A DNA stretch of 64,000 nt from Firmicutes bacterium CAG:321_26_22 (GTDB taxonomy: Bacteria; Bacillota_I; Bacilli_A; RF39; UBA660): NCBI GenBank assembly GCA_001916775.1, contig MNTB01000030.1, positions 120,901-184,900 on the forward strand, given 5' to 3'. Position 1 is the first letter of the stretch. Each line of letters opens with the position of its first letter. This document shows, in pieces, positions 5,959-16,367 of this stretch. A program made the translations under genes and the position numbers. A model generated the notes under the pieces. The model made no database searches, was not told the DNA's origin, and was given only the letters and a program-made list of their open reading frames with translations.

Positions 5959-6669
5959 ATGATAAATGATGACTGTTATAAGTTTTTAAAACTAGATATT
6001 GTTAGTGATACAGATAATATGATTAGTGTTTACTCTTTATACAAATTATTAAATGAATACTTTGAAGATTTTAGAATATTAAGATATGGTAATGATAAAA
6101 TGATTAATAGTATGAATAATGAATATACTTTTGTAGATAGAATTAAAAATAACATGATAAATCCTTGGTTTAGAAAAATCTTTATTTCAGAATTTAATGA
6201 TAATTTTATTAAGATGGTTATTATAGTTAATCCAATATATAGAAGAAAAGAATTTTCTACTAATAATATTTATTATTATATAATAAAGGATAGAAATAGT
6301 GGTAATATTTACTTTGAGAATAATGTACTAAAAAATAGGGTATTTGATAAATTTTATCAAGAAATTATAAATATATTTTCTTTAGCTGAAATTTATACTG
6401 ATATTTTTATGCTTGATAAAAGAGATTTTCCTATATATCATCAGACATTTGACTTAGATAATGTTGGCGCCAGTGTTGATTATAATAATTTTGGTAATGT
6501 CTCTTCTTATATTATATATGATGGTAAAATATGTAGTAATAATGAAATTAAAGATATTAAAAATGATATCTTAAAAAGAATTCCTGTATATACAGATAAT
6601 CTTGATGTTATAAGTAGTTATATTGTTAATGAACAAAGAAAAGCTAAAATTAGAAAAAAAGAATATTAA
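5959..6669 (+). CDS. Hypothetical protein (236 aa from the ATG at 5959)
   Basis: GGGAGGA RBS at 5944-5950, 8 nt before the ATG at 5959. The ORF-track start at 5899 lies too close to the predicted promoter. No recognisable family. Confidence 0.5.
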   Translation: MINDDCYKFLKLDIVSDTDNMISVYSLYKLLNEYFEDFRILRYGNDKMINSMNNEYTFVDRIKNNMINPWFRKIFISEFNDNFIKMVIIVNPIYRRKEFSTNNIYYYIIKDRNSGNIYFENNVLKNRVFDKFYQEIINIFSLAEIYTDIFMLDKRDFPIYHQTFDLDNVGASVDYNNFGNVSSYIIYDGKICSNNEIKDIKNDILKRIPVYTDNLDVISSYIVNEQRKAKIRKKEY

Positions 6670-6720
6670 AGTAGAGACAATGTGGCTCTACTTTCTTTCT
6701 GAAGACTTATGGCTTCAGAA
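6669..6720. repeat. Two tandem hairpins of the AGAC...GGCT family (HP-AG); the first probably terminates the upstream gene
   Basis: aagtagAGACaatgtGGCTctactt and ttctgaAGACttatGGCTtcagaa, read directly. Confidence 0.7.
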
Positions 6721-6821
6721 ACAACGAACAACGAAGTGTGAGATGCCTAAATAAATTAGATATTTTACTTGAAAATTATATGATTTTATTATATACTTAT
6801 ATTAACCAAAGGAGGTATTTT

Positions 6822-7580
6822 ATGAAAAGTAGTAGAATTATGAAAATATTTGAACAATATGTCAGAAAATATGATATGAATAATATAGATATTAAAGCTA
6901 GATATTTTCATTCACTGAAAGTTATGGAACTTGCAAGAGAACTAGCTACTGGTTTGGGTATTTTTTCTGAGGAAGAAGTAGCCGTCTGTGAACTTATTGG
7001 TCTATTTCATGAGATAGGTAACTTTTCTAAAACTCCTAATTATCAAATGGATGATGATATTAATGATAGTTATAATAGAACTATTGATGTTTTATTTAAT
7101 AAAAAGTTAATTAGAGAAATTAGTAAAGAAACTAAGTATGATACAGTTATTAAAATGGCTATCTTTGCTTATGATAAAAATGGATTCCCTGCTGATATTG
7201 ATGAGAAAGGTAGACATATGTGTGCTATTATAAAAGATGCTCATAATTTAGATTCTTTTAGATTATTTGTTAATTATCCATATGTAGATACAGTAATCAA
7301 AAGTTATCCTAGTAGTCTCGTGTATGATGACTTTAAAAGTTTTAAGACTATTAGTTCTAAAGTAAGTGATAATGCTAGTGATGAAGTATTAGTTACTTTA
7401 TCGAAGATGTATTCATTTAATTATAAATATTCTTATTATTTATTAAAACAAAATGATTATGTTAATAAGATATTTAATTTTTTAAATTTTGATAATAGTG
7501 AATTAGAGGGGTTCTTTAAACAACTTATGGTTGTTCTTAATAATTATATCGATAAAAGGATAGGTGTTGTAAATGCTTGA
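6822..7580 (+). CDS. HD-superfamily-like domain protein
   Basis: AAGGAGG RBS before the ATG at 6822. [14 protein letters not shown] ... LIGLFHEIG pattern typical of HD-domain phosphohydrolases. The stop overlaps the valS start. Confidence 0.55.
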
Positions 7581-10107
7581 TAAAAAATATGACCACTTGA
7601 TGGTTGAAAAAGATAAATATGATAATTGGAAGAAAAAGGGGTATTTTAAATCTGGTGATTTAAGTAAGGAACCATACTGTATAGTTATTCCTCCTCCTAA
7701 TGTAACGGGTAAATTACATTTAGGTCATGCTTGGGATACTTCAATTCAAGATATTATTATTAGATATAAGAGAATGCAAGGGTTTGATACTTTATGGCTT
7801 CCAGGTATGGATCATGCTGGTATTGCTACGCAGGCTAAGGTAGATAAAAAACTTAAGAGTGAAGGTATTAATCCTAGAAGTATGTCTCGTGAAGAGTGGC
7901 TTAAGGTTGCTTGGTCTTGGAAAGAAGAATATGCTGAAAATATTCATAGTCAGTGGGCTAAACTTGGTTTATCTCTTGATTATGATAAGGAAAGATTTAC
8001 TTTAGATGATGGTTTATCTCATGCTGTTAGAAAGGTATTTGTTGATTTATATAACAAAGGTCTTATCTATAGAGGTGAGAGAATTATTAATTGGGATCCT
8101 GCAGCGATGACTGCTCTAAGTAATGAAGAGGTTATTTATAAAGATGTTGAAGGAGCCTTCTACCACATTAAATATATGATTGAAGGTACTGATGAGTATC
8201 TAGAGGTTGCTACGACTAGACCAGAGACTTTATTTGGTGATACTGCAGTTGCAGTTAATCCAGATGATGATAGGTATAAGAAATATATTGGTAAGAATGT
8301 TATGCTTCCAATAGTTAATAAACTTATTCCTATTATTGGTGATGAACACGCTGATATGGAGTTTGGTACTGGTGTTGTTAAGATTACTCCTGCTCATGAC
8401 CCTAATGACTTTGAAGTAGGTAATAGACATAATCTAGAGAGAATTGTCGTTATGAATCCTAATGGTACAATGAACGAGAATGCTGGTAAATATAATGGTA
8501 TGGATAGATTTGAATGTAGAGATGCTGTTATTAAGGACTTAGATAGTGAAGGACTTCTTATTAAGATTGAACCTATTAATCATAACGTTGGTTTTTCTGA
8601 GAGAAGCGATGTTATGGTTGAACCTTATCTTTCTAAACAATGGTTTGTTAAGATGAGACCACTAGCAGATAGAGTTCTTGAAAACCAAAAGGATAAAGAT
8701 AAGAAAGTTAACTTTGTTCCTCCTAGATATGAAAAGACTATGAATCACTGGATGGAGATCACATATGATTGGTGTATCTCTAGACAATTATGGTGGGGTC
8801 ACAGAATACCTGCTTGGTATAAAGGTGAGGAAGTTTATGTTGGTATGGAAGAACCTAAAGGTGATGGTTGGGTACAGGATAATGATGTACTTGATACTTG
8901 GTTTTCTTCAGCACTATGGCCTTTTAGTACTTTAGGATGGCCTGATAATACTGACTTACTTAAGAGATATTATCCTAATAATGTACTAGTTACTGGTTAT
9001 GATATTATTCCTTTCTGGGTTAATAGAATGACTTTTCAAGGACTTGAGTTCTTAAATGAAAGACCTTTTAAAGATTGTTTAATTCATGGTCTTATTAGAG
9101 ATAAAAAAGGTAGAAAGATGAGTAAGAGTCTAGGTAATGGTATTGACCCTATGGATGTTATTGATATGTATGGTGCTGACTCTTTAAGATTCTTCTTAAC
9201 TACAAATACCGCTCCTGGTATGGATTTAAGATATGATGAAGAAAAAGTTAAATCAACTTGGAACTTTATTAATAAGATTTGGAATGCTTCAAGATTTGTT
9301 TTAATGAAACTAGAAGACTTTAAAGAGGAAGATTATACTCTTGATAATTTAAAAGAAGAAGATAAGTGGATTTTAAATAGATTAAATACTACGATTAAAG
9401 ATGTTACTAAAAATATGGATAAATATGATTTTCATATTGTAGGTAATACACTATATGATTTTGTATGGGGAGACTTCTGTGACAAGTATATTGAGTTATC
9501 TAAGTTCTATAATGATAATACTACGAAGAGTGTACTTATTAGAGTTCTTACAGATATTCTGAAGATGCTTCATCCTTTTATGCCTTATGTTACTGAAGAA
9601 ATATATGGTATGATGCCTATTAAAGAAGCAGAATCTATTATGATTAGTAATTATCCTGTATATAATAAGAAAGAGGTATTTACCACTAATATTGATAATG
9701 TACTTGAATTTATTACAATGTTTAGAAATAAAAAGGCTGAACTTGGTAATATTGGAGAGTATAAGGTATATATTGATATTGATGACGAGACTTCTAAAGA
9801 CATTATTATTAATATGCTAAAATTAAGTGATAAGATTTCTTTAGAAGATGGTAATGGTATAAAAATAGAATATGCTGGTATGAAGGCTTCTATTATATAT
9901 GATAATAGTAAGAGTTTAGAAGAAGAAAAAGAAAAACTTCTTAAAGAAAAAGAAAGTCTAGAGGCTTCAATTGCAAGAAGAGAGAAACTTCTTAGTAATA
10001 GTAATTATGTTGAGAAGGCTCCTAAAGCAATTGTTGATAAAGATAGAGAAGCTCTTCTTAAAGAAAAAGAAATGTTAGATATTATTTTAAATAAAATTAA
10101 TGGTTAG
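7573..10107 (+). CDS. valS: Valyl-tRNA synthetase
   Basis: [15 protein letters not shown] (HIGH region), KMSKSLGN, class Ia editing domain, and the C-terminal coiled coil typical of ValRS. 844 aa. Confidence 0.95.
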
Positions 10108-10130
10108 TTTATAAAAAGGAGGTTATATTT

Positions 10131-10466
10131 ATGGCTAAGTATTGTGCAAATTGTGGAAAGGAATTAACTGATGAACAAGATATTTGTTTAAATTGTGGTG
10201 TTAGAGTTAAAAAGAGTACTACTTCAAGTGATCCTAATGCTAAATCTAAACTTGCTGCTGGGTTATTTGGTATTTTCTTAGGTGCCTTTGGTGTTCATAA
10301 CTTTTACCTTGGTTTTACTGGTAAAGCAGTTGCTCAACTTTTAATCACTGTTTTATCTTGTGGTATCTTAAGTCCTGTGTCCGCTATATGGGGACTTATT
10401 GAAGGTATTATGATTCTTTCTAGTAATGACTATAAAGATGCTGATGGTAATACTTTAAGAGACTAA
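10131..10466 (+). CDS. Zinc-ribbon plus TM2-domain membrane protein
   Basis: N-terminal CANCG...CLNCG ribbon, then GLFGIFLGAFGVHNFYLGFTGKAVAQLL, which matches the TM2 domain signature. Confidence 0.75.
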   Translation: MAKYCANCGKELTDEQDICLNCGVRVKKSTTSSDPNAKSKLAAGLFGIFLGAFGVHNFYLGFTGKAVAQLLITVLSCGILSPVSAIWGLIEGIMILSSNDYKDADGNTLRD

Positions 10467-13011: not shown

Positions 13012-13046
13012 ATAGTTGTAAAAAAAAATTTACAACTATTTTTTTA
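13011..13046 (+). terminator. Intrinsic terminator
   Basis: aatagttgtaaa-loop-tttacaactatt followed by a T-run. Confidence 0.7.
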
Positions 13047-13105
13047 GTTATGTTGTTGTAATTTTTGGTAATTTTGTTATAATATTGTTAGAAAGGATGG
13101 TTAGT

Positions 13106-13669
13106 ATGATTAAGAAAATAAATGAGTACATTAATTTATCAATTATATTGTCAGTTTTATTTATGATAGTGGGAGTATTACTTATAGTATGGCCTAAAGC
13201 ATCTCTTGATACTTTTGCTTATGTTATTGGTACTATTATGATTATCTATGGTATTTATAGTTTTATAGATAGTTTTAGTATTAATCCTGCTCTTTGTTTA
13301 TTCCAAATGACAAATAGTATTTTATCATTTTTACTTGGTATTTGTGTATTCTTAAATCCTAGTATTTTTGAGAGTATTTTACCAATTGCTTTAGGTATTT
13401 TCTTTATTATAAGTGGTGCATTTAGTTCTAGAATATCATTTATTATTAAAGATATTGATAATAGTTATATTCTATCTTTATTTACCTCTATCTTAATGAT
13501 CATATGTGGTGTAGTATTAATTATTAATCCAGGAAATACTGCTCTTGTTATTACTACATTAATTGGTATTATTCTTATTGTATACTCTGTAAGTGCCATA
13601 ATTGACATGTTTGTATTTAAATCAAGAGTAAAAGAAATAGATAAGTACTTTAGTAAATTACTTAAATAA
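13106..13669 (+). CDS. HdeD/DUF308-family integral membrane protein
   Basis: Six predicted TM helices in the repeated pattern typical of DUF308. RBS AAGGATGG before the ATG at 13106. Confidence 0.55.
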   Translation: MIKKINEYINLSIILSVLFMIVGVLLIVWPKASLDTFAYVIGTIMIIYGIYSFIDSFSINPALCLFQMTNSILSFLLGICVFLNPSIFESILPIALGIFFIISGAFSSRISFIIKDIDNSYILSLFTSILMIICGVVLIINPGNTALVITTLIGIILIVYSVSAIIDMFVFKSRVKEIDKYFSKLLK

Positions 13670-13778
13670 TCCTATTAACTTAGGGTTATTTTTTTGTAAA
13701 GTATTCTGTAAAATATGAATCATTTCCTTTATTGTTATTTCTAAATATGATATATTTATACTAGAAAAGGTGATAACT

Positions 13779-16280
13779 ATGGATGATAACATGAGAAATG
13801 CTTGGCTAGATATGATATCTAAAGTTTATACTAATTTACATAATAGTGATAGAGTTCTTAGAGCTTCAAATGTATCTGATAAAAAAAGAGAAAGATTATT
13901 AAAATATTTTGAAAGACTTGAAGAACTACATAATAGAGTATCTGAGACAAGAAGTGTTAATGGTGAAAAATTACTTAAAAGTTTTTATTATGACTTATAT
14001 GTTATTAAACCAGAAAACATACCTGATGCTTACTTTCAAAACCAAGTTAGACTTGCTAGAGAAAGAGGTTATGGTAACATAGAATTAACTGAAGAAGATA
14101 AGAGGAGAATGACTGAAGAAGTTATTGATGATCAAAGGAAAAGTTTAGATAAATGGATTGAATACTTTTTATATGATGAAGAAAGTAAATCTTATGGAAT
14201 GTGGGAAAAATACTGGGTATTTCAAGGACTACAAAGTTTAGGTAAATATGATAAGGAAACTGGTAAATTTAGTAAAAGAGATAAAAGTACTGTATATCCT
14301 TTTCCTCTAGTAGAAAGAGAATATATTTTTACTACTTTAAAACTAATGGAAGATTTTCTTAAAGATAAAAAAAGCAAAGAAGATATTAAACAAGCATTAA
14401 GTACTGGTAATTTTAAACTTTTATATGAGTATGTTATTAAGCAAAGCTTTTTAAAAGGAGAACATCAAAGTAATAGTACTGATGGTAAATGGATTAAATA
14501 TGAACAAGAAAGTGATTATAATATTTTAAGAGATTCACTTCAAGGCTATTATACTGGTTGGTGTACTGCTGCTGGGGAGAACTTTGCCAAAGACCAGTTG
14601 GCAGGTGGTGACTTTTATGTTTACTACTCATTAGATAAGAATGGTGAAGCAAAAGTACCTAGAATTGCTATTAGAATGGATGGTAAAGATAAAATTGGAG
14701 AGATTAGAGGTATTGCAGATAATCAAAATATGGAACCTGAAATGATGCCCATTCTTGAAGAAAAACTAAAAGATTTTCCTGATAAAGGTAAATATCTAAA
14801 AAAAGAACATGATATGAAATTACTTACTTTAATTGATAAAAAGGTAAATGATAATATTGATCTTACTCTTGAAGAACTTAAATTTTTATATGAAATAGAT
14901 GGTCAAATCATAGGTTTCGGGTATGGAAAAGATCCTAGAATAGAAGAAATTAAAAGAAAAAGAAATGAAAGAAGAGATTATAGTCTTATATTTAATGTTA
15001 AAGAAGAAGAGGTTGCTTTATCACAAAAAGAATGGCTAAATAATCCAAAAAAATTTAAAGCTCTTCCGGGTAATATAGATTTAGGCTCTCTTACTAGTGC
15101 TGATGGACTTGTTCTTCCTCAACATGTTGGTGGCAATATAGATTTAAATTCTCTTGCTAGCGCTGATGGGCTTGTTCTTCCTCAACATGTTGGTGGCAAT
15201 ATATTTTTAAGACATCTTACTAATGCTGAGGGACTTGTTCTTCCTAAACAACTTGGTGGTGGTATAGATTTAAGATCTCTTACTAGTGCTGAGGGACTTG
15301 TTCTTCCTCAACATGTTGGTGGCAATATATTTTTAAGACATCTTACTAGTGCTGAAGGACTTGTTCTTCCTCAACATGTTGGTGGCAATATATATTTAAG
15401 TTCTCTTGCTAGTGCTGATGGACTTATTCTTCCTCAACATGTTGGTAATAGTATAGATTTAAGTTCTCTTACTAGTGCTGATGGACTTGTTCTTCCTAAA
15501 CAACTTGGTGGTGGTATAGATTTAAGTTCTCTTGCTAGTGCTGATGGACTTGTTCTTCCCGAAAGTATTGGTGGTAGGATAGATTTAAGTTCTCTTACTA
15601 GTGCTGATGGACTTATTCTTCCTCAACATGTTGGTAATAGTATAGATTTAAGTTCTCTTGCTAGTGCTAAAGGACTTGTTCTTCCCGAAAGTATTGGTGG
15701 TAGGATAGATTTAAAATCTCTTACTAGTGCTGATGGACTTGTTCTTCCTCAACATGTTGGTAGTAGTATAAATTTAAGTTCTCTTACTAGTGCTGATGGA
15801 CTTGTTCTTCCTCAACATGTTGGTGGCTATATAGATTTAAGATCTCTTACTAGTGCTGATGGACTTATTCTTCCTAAACAACTTGATGGTAGTATAGATT
15901 TAAGATCTCTTACTAGTGCTGATGGACTAGATTTAAGATCTCTTACTAGTGCTGATGGACTTGTTCTTCCTCAACATGTTGGTGGCTATATAGATTTAAG
16001 CTCTCTTACTAGTGCTGATGGGCTTGTTCTTCCAGAAAGTATTGGTGGTGATATATATTTAAACTCTCTTACTAGTGCTGATGGGCTTGTTCTTCCAGAA
16101 AGTATTGTTGGTGATATATATTTAAACTCTCTTACTAGTACTGATGGACTTGTTCTTCCTCATGATTTTAATTTATTTATGCTATATTGTCCTTATTATA
16201 TTGAAAAAGAAATTATGAATAATCCTGATAAATATTATATGGCTCCTACTGAAGATGATAAAAAAGAAATAAAAAGATAA
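13779..16280 (+). CDS. Large repeat protein: about 430-aa N-terminal domain of unknown function plus about 17 tandem 21-aa LRR-like repeats; no signal peptide seen
   Basis: RBS AAAGGTGA before the ATG at 13779. The C-terminal 364 aa consist of G(G/N)xIDLxSLTSADGLVLP(QHV/KQL/ESI)G units. The N-terminal part contains GWCTAAGENFAKDQLAGGDFYVYYS...IGEIRGIADNQN. Confidence 0.8.
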   Translation: MDDNMRNAWLDMISKVYTNLHNSDRVLRASNVSDKKRERLLKYFERLEELHNRVSETRSVNGEKLLKSFYYDLYVIKPENIPDAYFQNQVRLARERGYGNIELTEEDKRRMTEEVIDDQRKSLDKWIEYFLYDEESKSYGMWEKYWVFQGLQSLGKYDKETGKFSKRDKSTVYPFPLVEREYIFTTLKLMEDFLKDKKSKEDIKQALSTGNFKLLYEYVIKQSFLKGEHQSNSTDGKWIKYEQESDYNILRDSLQGYYTGWCTAAGENFAKDQLAGGDFYVYYSLDKNGEAKVPRIAIRMDGKDKIGEIRGIADNQNMEPEMMPILEEKLKDFPDKGKYLKKEHDMKLLTLIDKKVNDNIDLTLEELKFLYEIDGQIIGFGYGKDPRIEEIKRKRNERRDYSLIFNVKEEEVALSQKEWLNNPKKFKALPGNIDLGSLTSADGLVLPQHVGGNIDLNSLASADGLVLPQHVGGNIFLRHLTNAEGLVLPKQLGGGIDLRSLTSAEGLVLPQHVGGNIFLRHLTSAEGLVLPQHVGGNIYLSSLASADGLILPQHVGNSIDLSSLTSADGLVLPKQLGGGIDLSSLASADGLVLPESIGGRIDLSSLTSADGLILPQHVGNSIDLSSLASAKGLVLPESIGGRIDLKSLTSADGLVLPQHVGSSINLSSLTSADGLVLPQHVGGYIDLRSLTSADGLILPKQLDGSIDLRSLTSADGLDLRSLTSADGLVLPQHVGGYIDLSSLTSADGLVLPESIGGDIYLNSLTSADGLVLPESIVGDIYLNSLTSTDGLVLPHDFNLFMLYCPYYIEKEIMNNPDKYYMAPTEDDKKEIKR
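15069..16160 (+). repeat. Tandem 63-bp coding repeat array (16 full units plus one partial)
   Basis: Direct reading: the period is exactly 63 nt and many units are more than 85% identical at the DNA level. One unit carries an internal 33-bp duplication (15897-15929 / 15930-15962). Confidence 0.95.
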
Positions 16281-16286
16281 ACTTAA

Positions 16287-16367
16287 AATTGAAGACTACA
16301 GGCTTCAATTTTTTCATTAAAGACCTTAGGCTTTAATGATAGTAAAGAGATTACAAGCTCTTTACTA
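16287..16367. repeat. HP-AG hairpin pair plus tail element; the first hairpin is the terminator of the repeat-protein gene
   Basis: aattgaAGACtacaGGCTtcaatt+TTTT. Then cattaaAGACcttaGGCTttaatgatagt..., which is 29/30 identical to 52722-52751. Then the hairpin agtaaagag-attacaag-ctctttact. Confidence 0.75.

Follow-up and report, generated by a model that had tools for sequence, protein, structure and literature searches.

The 64-kb stretch of DNA analysed here (the window; contig MNTB01000030.1 of Firmicutes bacterium CAG:321_26_22) carries a gene, hereafter the target gene, in which a conserved N-terminal module of approximately 430 residues is followed by a tandem array of 63-bp units. We consider it likely that its product couples this conserved module to a fast-diversifying ligand-binding domain, with recombination between repeats taking the place of the retro-mutagenesis that is seen in relatives linked to diversity-generating retroelements (DGRs). 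The parts of the gene that bear on this reading are listed below.

13779..16280, + strand: complete coding sequence, 833 residues plus stop codon
13779..15068, + strand: conserved N-terminal module, ~430 residues, from the AlphaFold2 (AF2) model, the family search and dN/dS
14484..14729, + strand: most conserved core of the module, W241-K-Y to QN, residues 239-320 in GTG numbering (counted from the GTG of the mechanical open reading frame call described below), from invariant columns in alignments A1-A4
15072..16175, + strand: array of 17 full and 1 partial 63-bp/21-residue units, from Tandem Repeats Finder (TRF), unit parsing, the AF2 model and population unit statistics
15450..15638, + strand: three-unit block (units 7-9), 189 bp, missing from P0305/L046
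15891..15923, + strand: 11-residue partial unit from a 33-bp in-frame duplication, private to the window allele, at which the predicted solenoid is locally broken
16176..16277, + strand: conserved C-terminal cap, FxLxxLxCPxxIxxEIxxNPxKYY..., kept in orthologues of many species

TRF analysis shows a 63-bp period across positions 15069-16159 (13.7 + 3.7 copies, 85-91% matches), together with a perfect 33-bp duplication inside the array, and the parsed units have the consensus xIxLxSLTSADGLVLPxxxGG. A head-to-tail array of 21-residue units in the 3' part of the gene had been described in the original prediction, made from the DNA letters alone, and the three linker subtypes named there are all seen (QHV in nine units, KQL in three and ESI in four), with HDF at the terminal unit. 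The predicted number of approximately 17 units also agrees with the 17 full units parsed here, but "near-identical" is somewhat too strong a description given that pairwise nucleotide identity between units averages 83% and ranges from 68 to 95%. Directly before the first full unit, positions 15015-15071 (aa 416-434, …KFKALPG) act as a degenerate N-terminal capping unit, and tblastn comparison of the array with itself reaches back to 15015. At the other end, the C-terminal cap appears in the full-length AF2 model as short helices (aa 809-835).

Strain comparisons reveal that the number of units is not invariant. Approximately 146 strain variants, which are 92-100% identical to the window protein across the N-terminal 430 residues, have lengths of 550, 571, 592, 613, 634, 654, 675, 696, 717, 738, 759, 780, 801 and 836 residues, thereby stepping by 21 residues, with the window allele being the longest. 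When the arrays are coded as strings of linker types, cassette-like gains and losses are evident between strains, and identical strings or alleles turn up again in independent assemblies. Copy number therefore shifts in 21-residue steps among near-identical strains, as would be expected from the recombinational instability that had been proposed for the array. We also compared the window allele at the DNA level with its nearest relative, P0305 at locus L046. The 2.9 kb of flanking sequence on each side is 99.7% identical, no substitutions are present across the 1,290 nt of N-terminal coding sequence, and all 14 of the shared units are identical at 63 of 63 positions and retain their order. The only differences are the 189-bp block and the 33-bp in-frame duplication. 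Moreover, the three-unit block is bracketed by perfect 62-nt direct repeats (15409-15470 and 15598-15659), just what slipped-strand or unequal recombination would be expected to act on. All alleles examined keep both the reading frame and the C-terminal cap, and because 63 bp and 33 bp are multiples of 3, the outcome is variation in size and specificity rather than on/off switching; the frame- or promoter-based switching of a phase-variable contingency locus was not found in these alleles.

Differences between units are just as strongly patterned. Within the window allele, positions 1, 3 and 5 and the linker triplet at positions 17-19 vary, while positions 2, 4, 7, 12, 13, 15 and 16 are fixed, and pairwise comparison of positions 1, 3 and 5 gives 296 non-synonymous versus 10 synonymous differences. 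Pooling the strain alleles yields 62 distinct arrays and 698 units, 205 of them distinct, in which L4, L7, L13 and P16 are invariant, whereas positions 1, 3 and 5 have entropies of 2.2-2.5 bits and accept 12-13 residue types, mostly N, S, D, Y, R and G. As alternate residues of the first predicted beta-strand (xIxLxSL), these three positions lie on one face. In the full-length AF2 model, the array forms a regular solenoid to which each unit contributes two short strands (pLDDT 85-93), and only the 11-residue partial unit interrupts it (pLDDT 42-46). Such a pattern is typical of a rigid scaffold that bears a diversifying binding surface, and lends support to the earlier suggestion that the array is a rapidly evolving binding surface, given that alternate residues of one beta-strand vary in an overwhelmingly non-synonymous manner.

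The relationship of the unit to leucine-rich repeats (LRRs) is less direct. Its hydrophobic spacing is I2-L4-L7-A10-L13-L15-P16, and the consensus contains neither the LRR segment LxxLxLxx(N/C)xL nor an Asn/Cys ladder position. The window protein itself has no match to a Pfam LRR model, the sole trace being to SlrP (E=0.099), whereas some orthologous arrays match LRR_5 (2.2e-8), LRR_EndoS (1.5e-5), SlrP (2.4e-9) and XopAE (6.6e-7). Overall, the LRR regions of SlrP, XopAE, XopAC and GogB, and BspA-type LRR_5, are matched by the arrays of some orthologues with E-values from 9e-5 to 2e-9. That the repeat works like an LRR is well supported, but it is LRR-like only and falls into no standard LRR class, in line with the original prediction.

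The family defined by the N-terminal module comprises 1,845 clusters at 50% identity, 1,011 of which are found with E<=1e-30. The module has a dN/dS value of approximately 0.2, and approximately 40-55 columns are invariant in members that are 36-50% identical to the window protein. These include the motifs RExGxG, DQKxSLDxWxDY, W241-K-Y, TGWCTAG, GDFYVYY, PRxAIRM, IxExRG, QN and FGxxxDPR, and the only conserved cysteine, Cys265 in TGWCTAG (GTG numbering; codon 14562-14564), is invariant. The core spanning residues 239-320 is a candidate active or ligand site. Because so many invariant residues are polar or aromatic, the single cysteine among them, a catalytic or specific ligand-handling role is suggested for the module. 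In the AF2 model (pLDDT 84.4), an all-helical half (aa 6-228) is followed by four strands that form a small beta core, and the C-terminal part is again helical. Foldseek searches with the N-terminal model against PDB and BFVD gave no significant match, and none of the Foldseek searches, including that of the full-length model against PDB, returned a match below E=0.08 (TM-scores of ~0.1-0.2). Sequence searches of PDB, using single sequences and profiles, gave no matches at E<=10. Our queries of the curated libraries covered the full-length protein, its N-terminal module, core segments taken separately, 48 diverse family members and 8 members of unusual length. Pfam, NCBIfam, PADLOC and PHROG all lack a match to the N-terminal module, even when profiles and the 48 diverse members are used; PADLOC matches only the repeats, and weakly so (PD-T4-10_A, with no stretch passing alone), and the 8 long members carry no informative fused domains. 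Family members are named only "hypothetical protein" in public sources, apart from one stray "phage protein U". On the basis of the predicted structure, the module appears to be a new fold, and it is under purifying selection.

A link between this module and DGRs emerges from the distant members that best match the family profile. These proteins have ~600-630 residues and carry, instead of repeats, a 180-residue C-terminal domain ending in ...GLWLxxxWAxPxxxWxPxxxFVF(R/S/A/C)LRK, a tail typical of a variable region (VR) that is shared by many further members. Three of them lie beside genes for the accessory protein bAvd and a reverse transcriptase (RT), and in two a template repeat (TR) was paired with the VR.

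P0271 (L034): VR 7660-7798 (last 139 nt of the gene) versus TR 8123-8261 (463 nt downstream); bAvd and RVT_1 adjacent
P0279 (L039): 133-nt VR/TR pair with 25/26 mismatches at TR adenines; bAvd and RT adjacent
P0282: bAvd and RT adjacent

For P0271, 23 of the 24 VR/TR mismatches fall at TR adenines (A>T 9, A>G 8, A>C 6). The repeat-type and DGR-type N-terminal modules are 36-50% identical over ~420 residues, with E-values down to 1e-183, which makes it very unlikely that they are not homologous. The VR/TR comparisons identify bona fide DGRs that act on the C-terminus of proteins possessing the N-terminal module of the window protein. The window, in contrast, contains no TR-like copy and no paralogue of the target gene, differences between its units are not A-specific, and tblastn searches of the 64 kb with two DGR RTs and one Avd gave nothing below E=1. 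The use of the module by DGR target proteins had been overlooked in the original prediction. The DGR cassettes at L034:8123-9645 and L039:10171-11686 are compact, with the order target gene, TR, bAvd (opposite strand) and RT, and sit among housekeeping genes (thyA, tmk, enolase, dUTPase and nusB; sortase and argS). In L034, the dUTPase gene beside the RT appears to be split into two open reading frames.

A resemblance of the N-terminal domain to PcfJ had also been proposed, and was not borne out. By eye, the core of pCF10 PcfJ (HCVG...TTIVFIR...PYFTLEY...VIQIQGKCNRQ) aligns with WCTA...DFYVYYS...PRIAIRM...IGEIRGIADNQN in the window protein, so that an (H/W)-C, a G-hydrophobic strand, a P-x-hydrophobic strand and I-x-(Q/E)-I-x-G-x-x-N occur in the same order, and hhalign twice picks this register. 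The Pfam model of the PcfJ-like domain (PF14284), however, matches none of 8 isolated core segments or 34 family members (~40 members in all) at E<=10, even though the positive control, pCF10 PcfJ, scores 1.1e-43. We then deepened a shallow first version of a PcfJ profile with domains from Alicyclobacillus, Clostridium, Bacteroides, Listeria, Enterococcus and Vagococcus, giving 11 sequences from six genera and two phyla (Bacillota and Bacteroidota). Aligning the family (44 sequences) to this profile with hhalign gives a score of 16.6 and a probability of 0.25%, which is inside the column-shuffled null (mean 15.4, sd 2.9; 17 of 60 shuffles score 16.6 or higher), while the reversed profile scores 14.0. 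On these two grounds, the present data lend no support to PcfJ homology of the module. We know of no function for PcfJ. On Enterococcus, Listeria and Vagococcus plasmids (L033:17208-17984, L043, L044, L045), a PcfJ-domain gene consistently adjoins a gene for an AcrIIA9-family anti-CRISPR protein, which hints at an anti-defence role for PcfJ. A "PcfJ-like" motif has been described upstream of the VR in some DGR targets of the candidate phyla radiation (CPR) (Wu et al. 2018, PMC5758913).

Orthologues of the target gene are present at 32 loci from species-representative genomes labelled as uncultured Tenericutes/Bacilli gut metagenome-assembled genomes (MAGs), among them UMGS1739, UMGS610, Clostridium sp. 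CAG:302 and Hadza MAGs. Closed chromosomes in this set are 1.3-1.5 Mb in size, and we take the lineage to be the RF39 order. In the window, the genes surrounding the target are, in order, valS, DUF2752, yetF, polysaccharide deacetylase, DUF308, target, rmuC, prsA and secA. The DUF308-target-rmuC synteny is kept in closer species and lost in more distant ones, where no neighbour of the target is conserved save for an occasional tandem paralogue, and our search for a conserved partner gene found none beyond the immediate RF39 synteny. The gene is chromosomal and lineage-wide, with no obvious accessory island; the suggestion that it may be accessory is thus at odds with its conserved DUF308/rmuC synteny and its presence in 32 species-level genomes, although its alleles do recombine. 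Relative to L003, the flanking genes have dS values of 0.07-0.10, while the target module has a dS of 0.32 and an approximately 10-fold higher dN. The pattern is reversed relative to L002, with flanks at dS ~0.8 and the DUF308 and target genes at 0.08-0.25. Since target and flank dS values disagree, and in opposite directions for the two relatives, the locus is a mosaic, and whole alleles, sometimes with the upstream DUF308 gene, pass between lineages by recombination. Allele exchange thereby joins unit indels and point replacement as a third source of diversity.

Several side observations concern the same region and its counterparts. Across window positions 13085-15068, the DUF308 membrane-protein gene and the target have a shared history relative to L002 and L003 that is unlike that of the rest of the neighbourhood, which suggests that the two were transferred together. 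Some related species (L006, L010, L012 and L016) have two tandem family members, for example L012:3506-5815 and 5971-.... The complete chromosome CP091726.1 (L022) also has tandem copies (6010-8540 and 8678-10291), both of which are frameshifted several times. These frameshifts look like long-read assembly error rather than decay, and we discarded this chromosome as a long-read confirmation of the array because its gene is full of the frameshifts typical of uncorrected long-read assemblies.

In the mechanism that we envisage, a conserved N-terminal module is joined to a C-terminal solenoid of 21-residue LRR-like units that would serve as a variable recognition surface. Whole units or blocks are gained and lost through slipped-strand or unequal recombination between the 63-bp repeats, always in frame because the unit length is a multiple of 3; amino acid replacements are focused on the exposed positions 1, 3, 5 and 17-19, and whole alleles are swapped between lineages. 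Within the family, the target gene is the version based on repeats, other members having the same module joined to a DGR-hypermutated C-terminal domain, and the function common to the family would be one constant activity, supplied by the N-terminal part, that is tied to a rapidly re-programmable binding specificity determined by the ligand-binding C-terminal part. Such a family would presumably serve in recognition of a fast-changing partner, candidate ligands being a phage, a partner or host cell surface, or a competitor. We also put forward, tentatively, a more specific proposal in which the ~430-residue module, as an enzyme or effector with a new fold, would be directed at changing targets by partner-dependent bacteria with small genomes (RF39, CPR-like), by means of interchangeable, fast-diversifying recognition domains. 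Coupled independently to DGRs and to tandem-repeat recombination, it would constitute an undescribed programmable single-protein recognition-effector system. With respect to the original prediction as a whole, array instability, the binding surface, LRR-like character and the lack of a secretion signal (see below) have held up, while the PcfJ assignment and accessory status have not.

A number of points weigh against the coupling of a conserved module to a repeat-diversified binding domain. When the full-length model was searched against PDB using Foldseek, no significant LRR structure was found, the best match being the LH receptor (E=3.3). For three of the six informative VR-type members, the 2.5-8 kb of DNA examined contain no RT (one more member is cut by a contig end), and only one relative is annotated as Candidatus Pacebacteria/Paceibacterota, an annotation that does not derive from the DGR-bearing contigs themselves. 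In addition, it is solely the conservation pattern that suggests the term "enzyme/effector" for the N-terminal module. Finally, the exact window allele was not found in other public assemblies, with the result that its unit count and partial unit rest on one assembly, and the comparison alleles come mostly from short-read metagenome assemblies, so that some length variants could be mis-assembled. Together with the private 11-residue unit that breaks the predicted solenoid, these last observations are what one would expect if the array length in the window, and perhaps much of the length variation, were an assembly artefact of a repetitive region. We regard this explanation as highly improbable. 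The longest exact repeat within the array is 62 nt, a length that both normal reads and the k=141 of the comparison assembly exceed, making collapse unlikely. Moreover, the direct repeats bracketing the block indel are a signature of real recombination, the units shared with P0305 are identical and in the same order, identical alleles are found again in independent samples, and k-mer collapse does not yield an out-of-register 33-bp join. The units are also diverged, and the frame is intact all through.

Two other explanations concern where the protein acts. The target could be a cytoplasmic single-protein immune sensor-effector, in which the solenoid or DGR-mutated domain senses molecules of a phage or other invader and the N-terminal module is the effector, by analogy with DGR-diversified "antigen sensors" and with NLR-like proteins minus their NTPase switch. 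Intracellular sensors diversified by DGRs are a described concept (PMC10907252 and PMC7159879), and the module looks enzyme-like in having an invariant cysteine and many invariant charged residues. The gene also stands alone with no conserved partner. As had been predicted, the window protein has no secretion signal: its first 60 residues are hydrophilic, the maximum Kyte-Doolittle value over 19 residues is 0.98, and no signal peptide, transmembrane helix, lipobox or LPXTG-like motif is present. Neither the RF39-type protein of the window nor the VR-type members examined have a signal peptide, transmembrane helix or anchor, which favours an intracellular sensor-effector. On the other hand, the genomic context is one of housekeeping genes rather than defence islands, the sole PADLOC match (to the repeats) is not significant, neither an NTPase nor a known effector domain is found, and ~12% of family representatives (RF39-type and VR-type members not among them) have signal-peptide-like N-termini, meaning that the module also works outside the cytoplasm. 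An immune sensor strikes us as unlikely. Alternatively, the protein might be a surface or secreted adhesin or effector that allows a host-dependent, small-genome bacterium to bind the cells of a partner or molecules of a host; RF39 and CPR-like organisms would export it non-classically, whereas relatives with signal peptides would use Sec. This idea is possible, if somewhat doubtful. It is favoured by the signal peptides or lipobox-like N-termini of some family members and by the nature of the closest analogues, the hypervariable LRR proteins of Flavobacterium psychrophilum (PMC10392669), which are surface proteins, as are most cellular DGR targets (PMC8144416). The similarity of some members' repeats to type III effector LRRs (SlrP, XopAE, XopAC and GogB) and BspA-type LRR_5, and the occurrence of the family in reduced-genome lineages, point in the same direction. 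The window protein has none of the export signals named above, however, no dedicated secretion genes are adjacent, and there is no evidence of export.

The ends of the gene and its surroundings were also analysed in the window, which has 25% GC, a strong positive GC skew and nearly all of its genes on the + strand. Signals immediately flanking the coding sequence are as follows.

13766..13773, + strand: Shine-Dalgarno sequence AAAGGTGA, overlapping the GTG of the mechanical open reading frame call, with the ATG 5 nt further on
16285..16367, + strand: three tandem small hairpins 3' of the stop codon (inverted repeats I2 and I4, direct repeat D1)

The mechanical call is 13770..16280 (+), or 836 residues counted from GTG. 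Because this GTG sits within the Shine-Dalgarno sequence and all close homologues begin with MDDNM, we place the true start at the ATG (13779). The elements that the original prediction called "HP-AG" are indeed present after the gene, and resolve into the three hairpins, with arms AAAATTGAAGACT/AGGCTTCAATTTT, ATTAAAGACC/AGGCTTTAAT and TAGTAAAGAGATT/AAGCTCTTTACTA. Hairpins 1 and 2 are direct copies (77% identical), and hairpin 1, which is followed by a T-run, is probably a terminator. A consensus terminator scan found none at 16285-16367, having missed these hairpins because their stems are AT-rich. Upstream of the DUF308 gene, the intergenic positions 13041-13083 hold a 21-bp tandem duplication (2 copies, 81% match) that overlaps a good sigma-70-like promoter match, TTGTAA-16-TATAAT with TG (13056-13083).

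Among known systems, DGR target proteins of the CPR/Patescibacteria type (Wu et al. 2018, PMC5758913; Roux et al. 2021, PMC8144416) are those with the homologous N-terminal module. In these proteins, too, the N-terminal part is constant and the C-terminal binding part hypervariable; they likewise have no signal peptide and stand alone in a housekeeping context. Such targets have been reported to lack recognisable domains, and their membrane location is unresolved (PMC8144416). Unlike them, the target gene has no VR/TR pair, the window encodes neither Avd nor an RT, the C-terminus is a tandem-repeat solenoid rather than a ...GLWL...FVFRLRK VR domain, and diversity stems from inter-repeat recombination instead of adenine-directed retro-mutagenesis. 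The LRR loci of F. psychrophilum (Altae-Tran et al. 2020, PMC10392669) resemble the target gene in encoding a solenoid of ~21-22-residue units with hypervariable residues concentrated on one face, and in varying in unit number between strains through recombination or slippage while the flanking genes are conserved. Those proteins, however, have a signal peptide and a type IX secretion system sorting domain, are encoded in multi-gene tandem loci and lack the 430-residue N-terminal module, whereas the unit of the window protein has neither the canonical LxxLxLxxN nor a match to an LRR model. The SlrP/SspH/IpaH ligases of the NEL (novel E3 ligase) type likewise pair an LRR-type recognition domain with a domain containing a conserved cysteine, and the family repeats give weak matches to the SlrP model (2.4e-9 for the best relative, 0.099 for the window protein), but the domain order is reversed, the sequence and fold show no NEL similarity, and no secretion system is found in the context of the target gene.

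Hypervariable LRR-type repeat proteins and DGR targets are therefore both known kinds already. What is new here is a large, uncharted N-terminal module with a predicted new fold, the attachment of two unrelated hypervariation mechanisms to this one module, and the occurrence of the module in a gene that varies between strains of a common but uncultured human-gut lineage. The "domain-less" CPR DGR targets thereby gain a defined shared module, and its pairing with a different diversification mechanism in RF39-type bacteria of the human gut represents convergence. Convergence on two mechanisms argues that the module needs a re-programmable binding partner, and provides two independent handles on its function. 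Within this abundant gut lineage, the repeat gene is likely to underlie strain individuality and offers a natural marker with which strains could be tracked. Since the fold of the module has no counterpart in PDB or BFVD, its structure or activity would be new biology.

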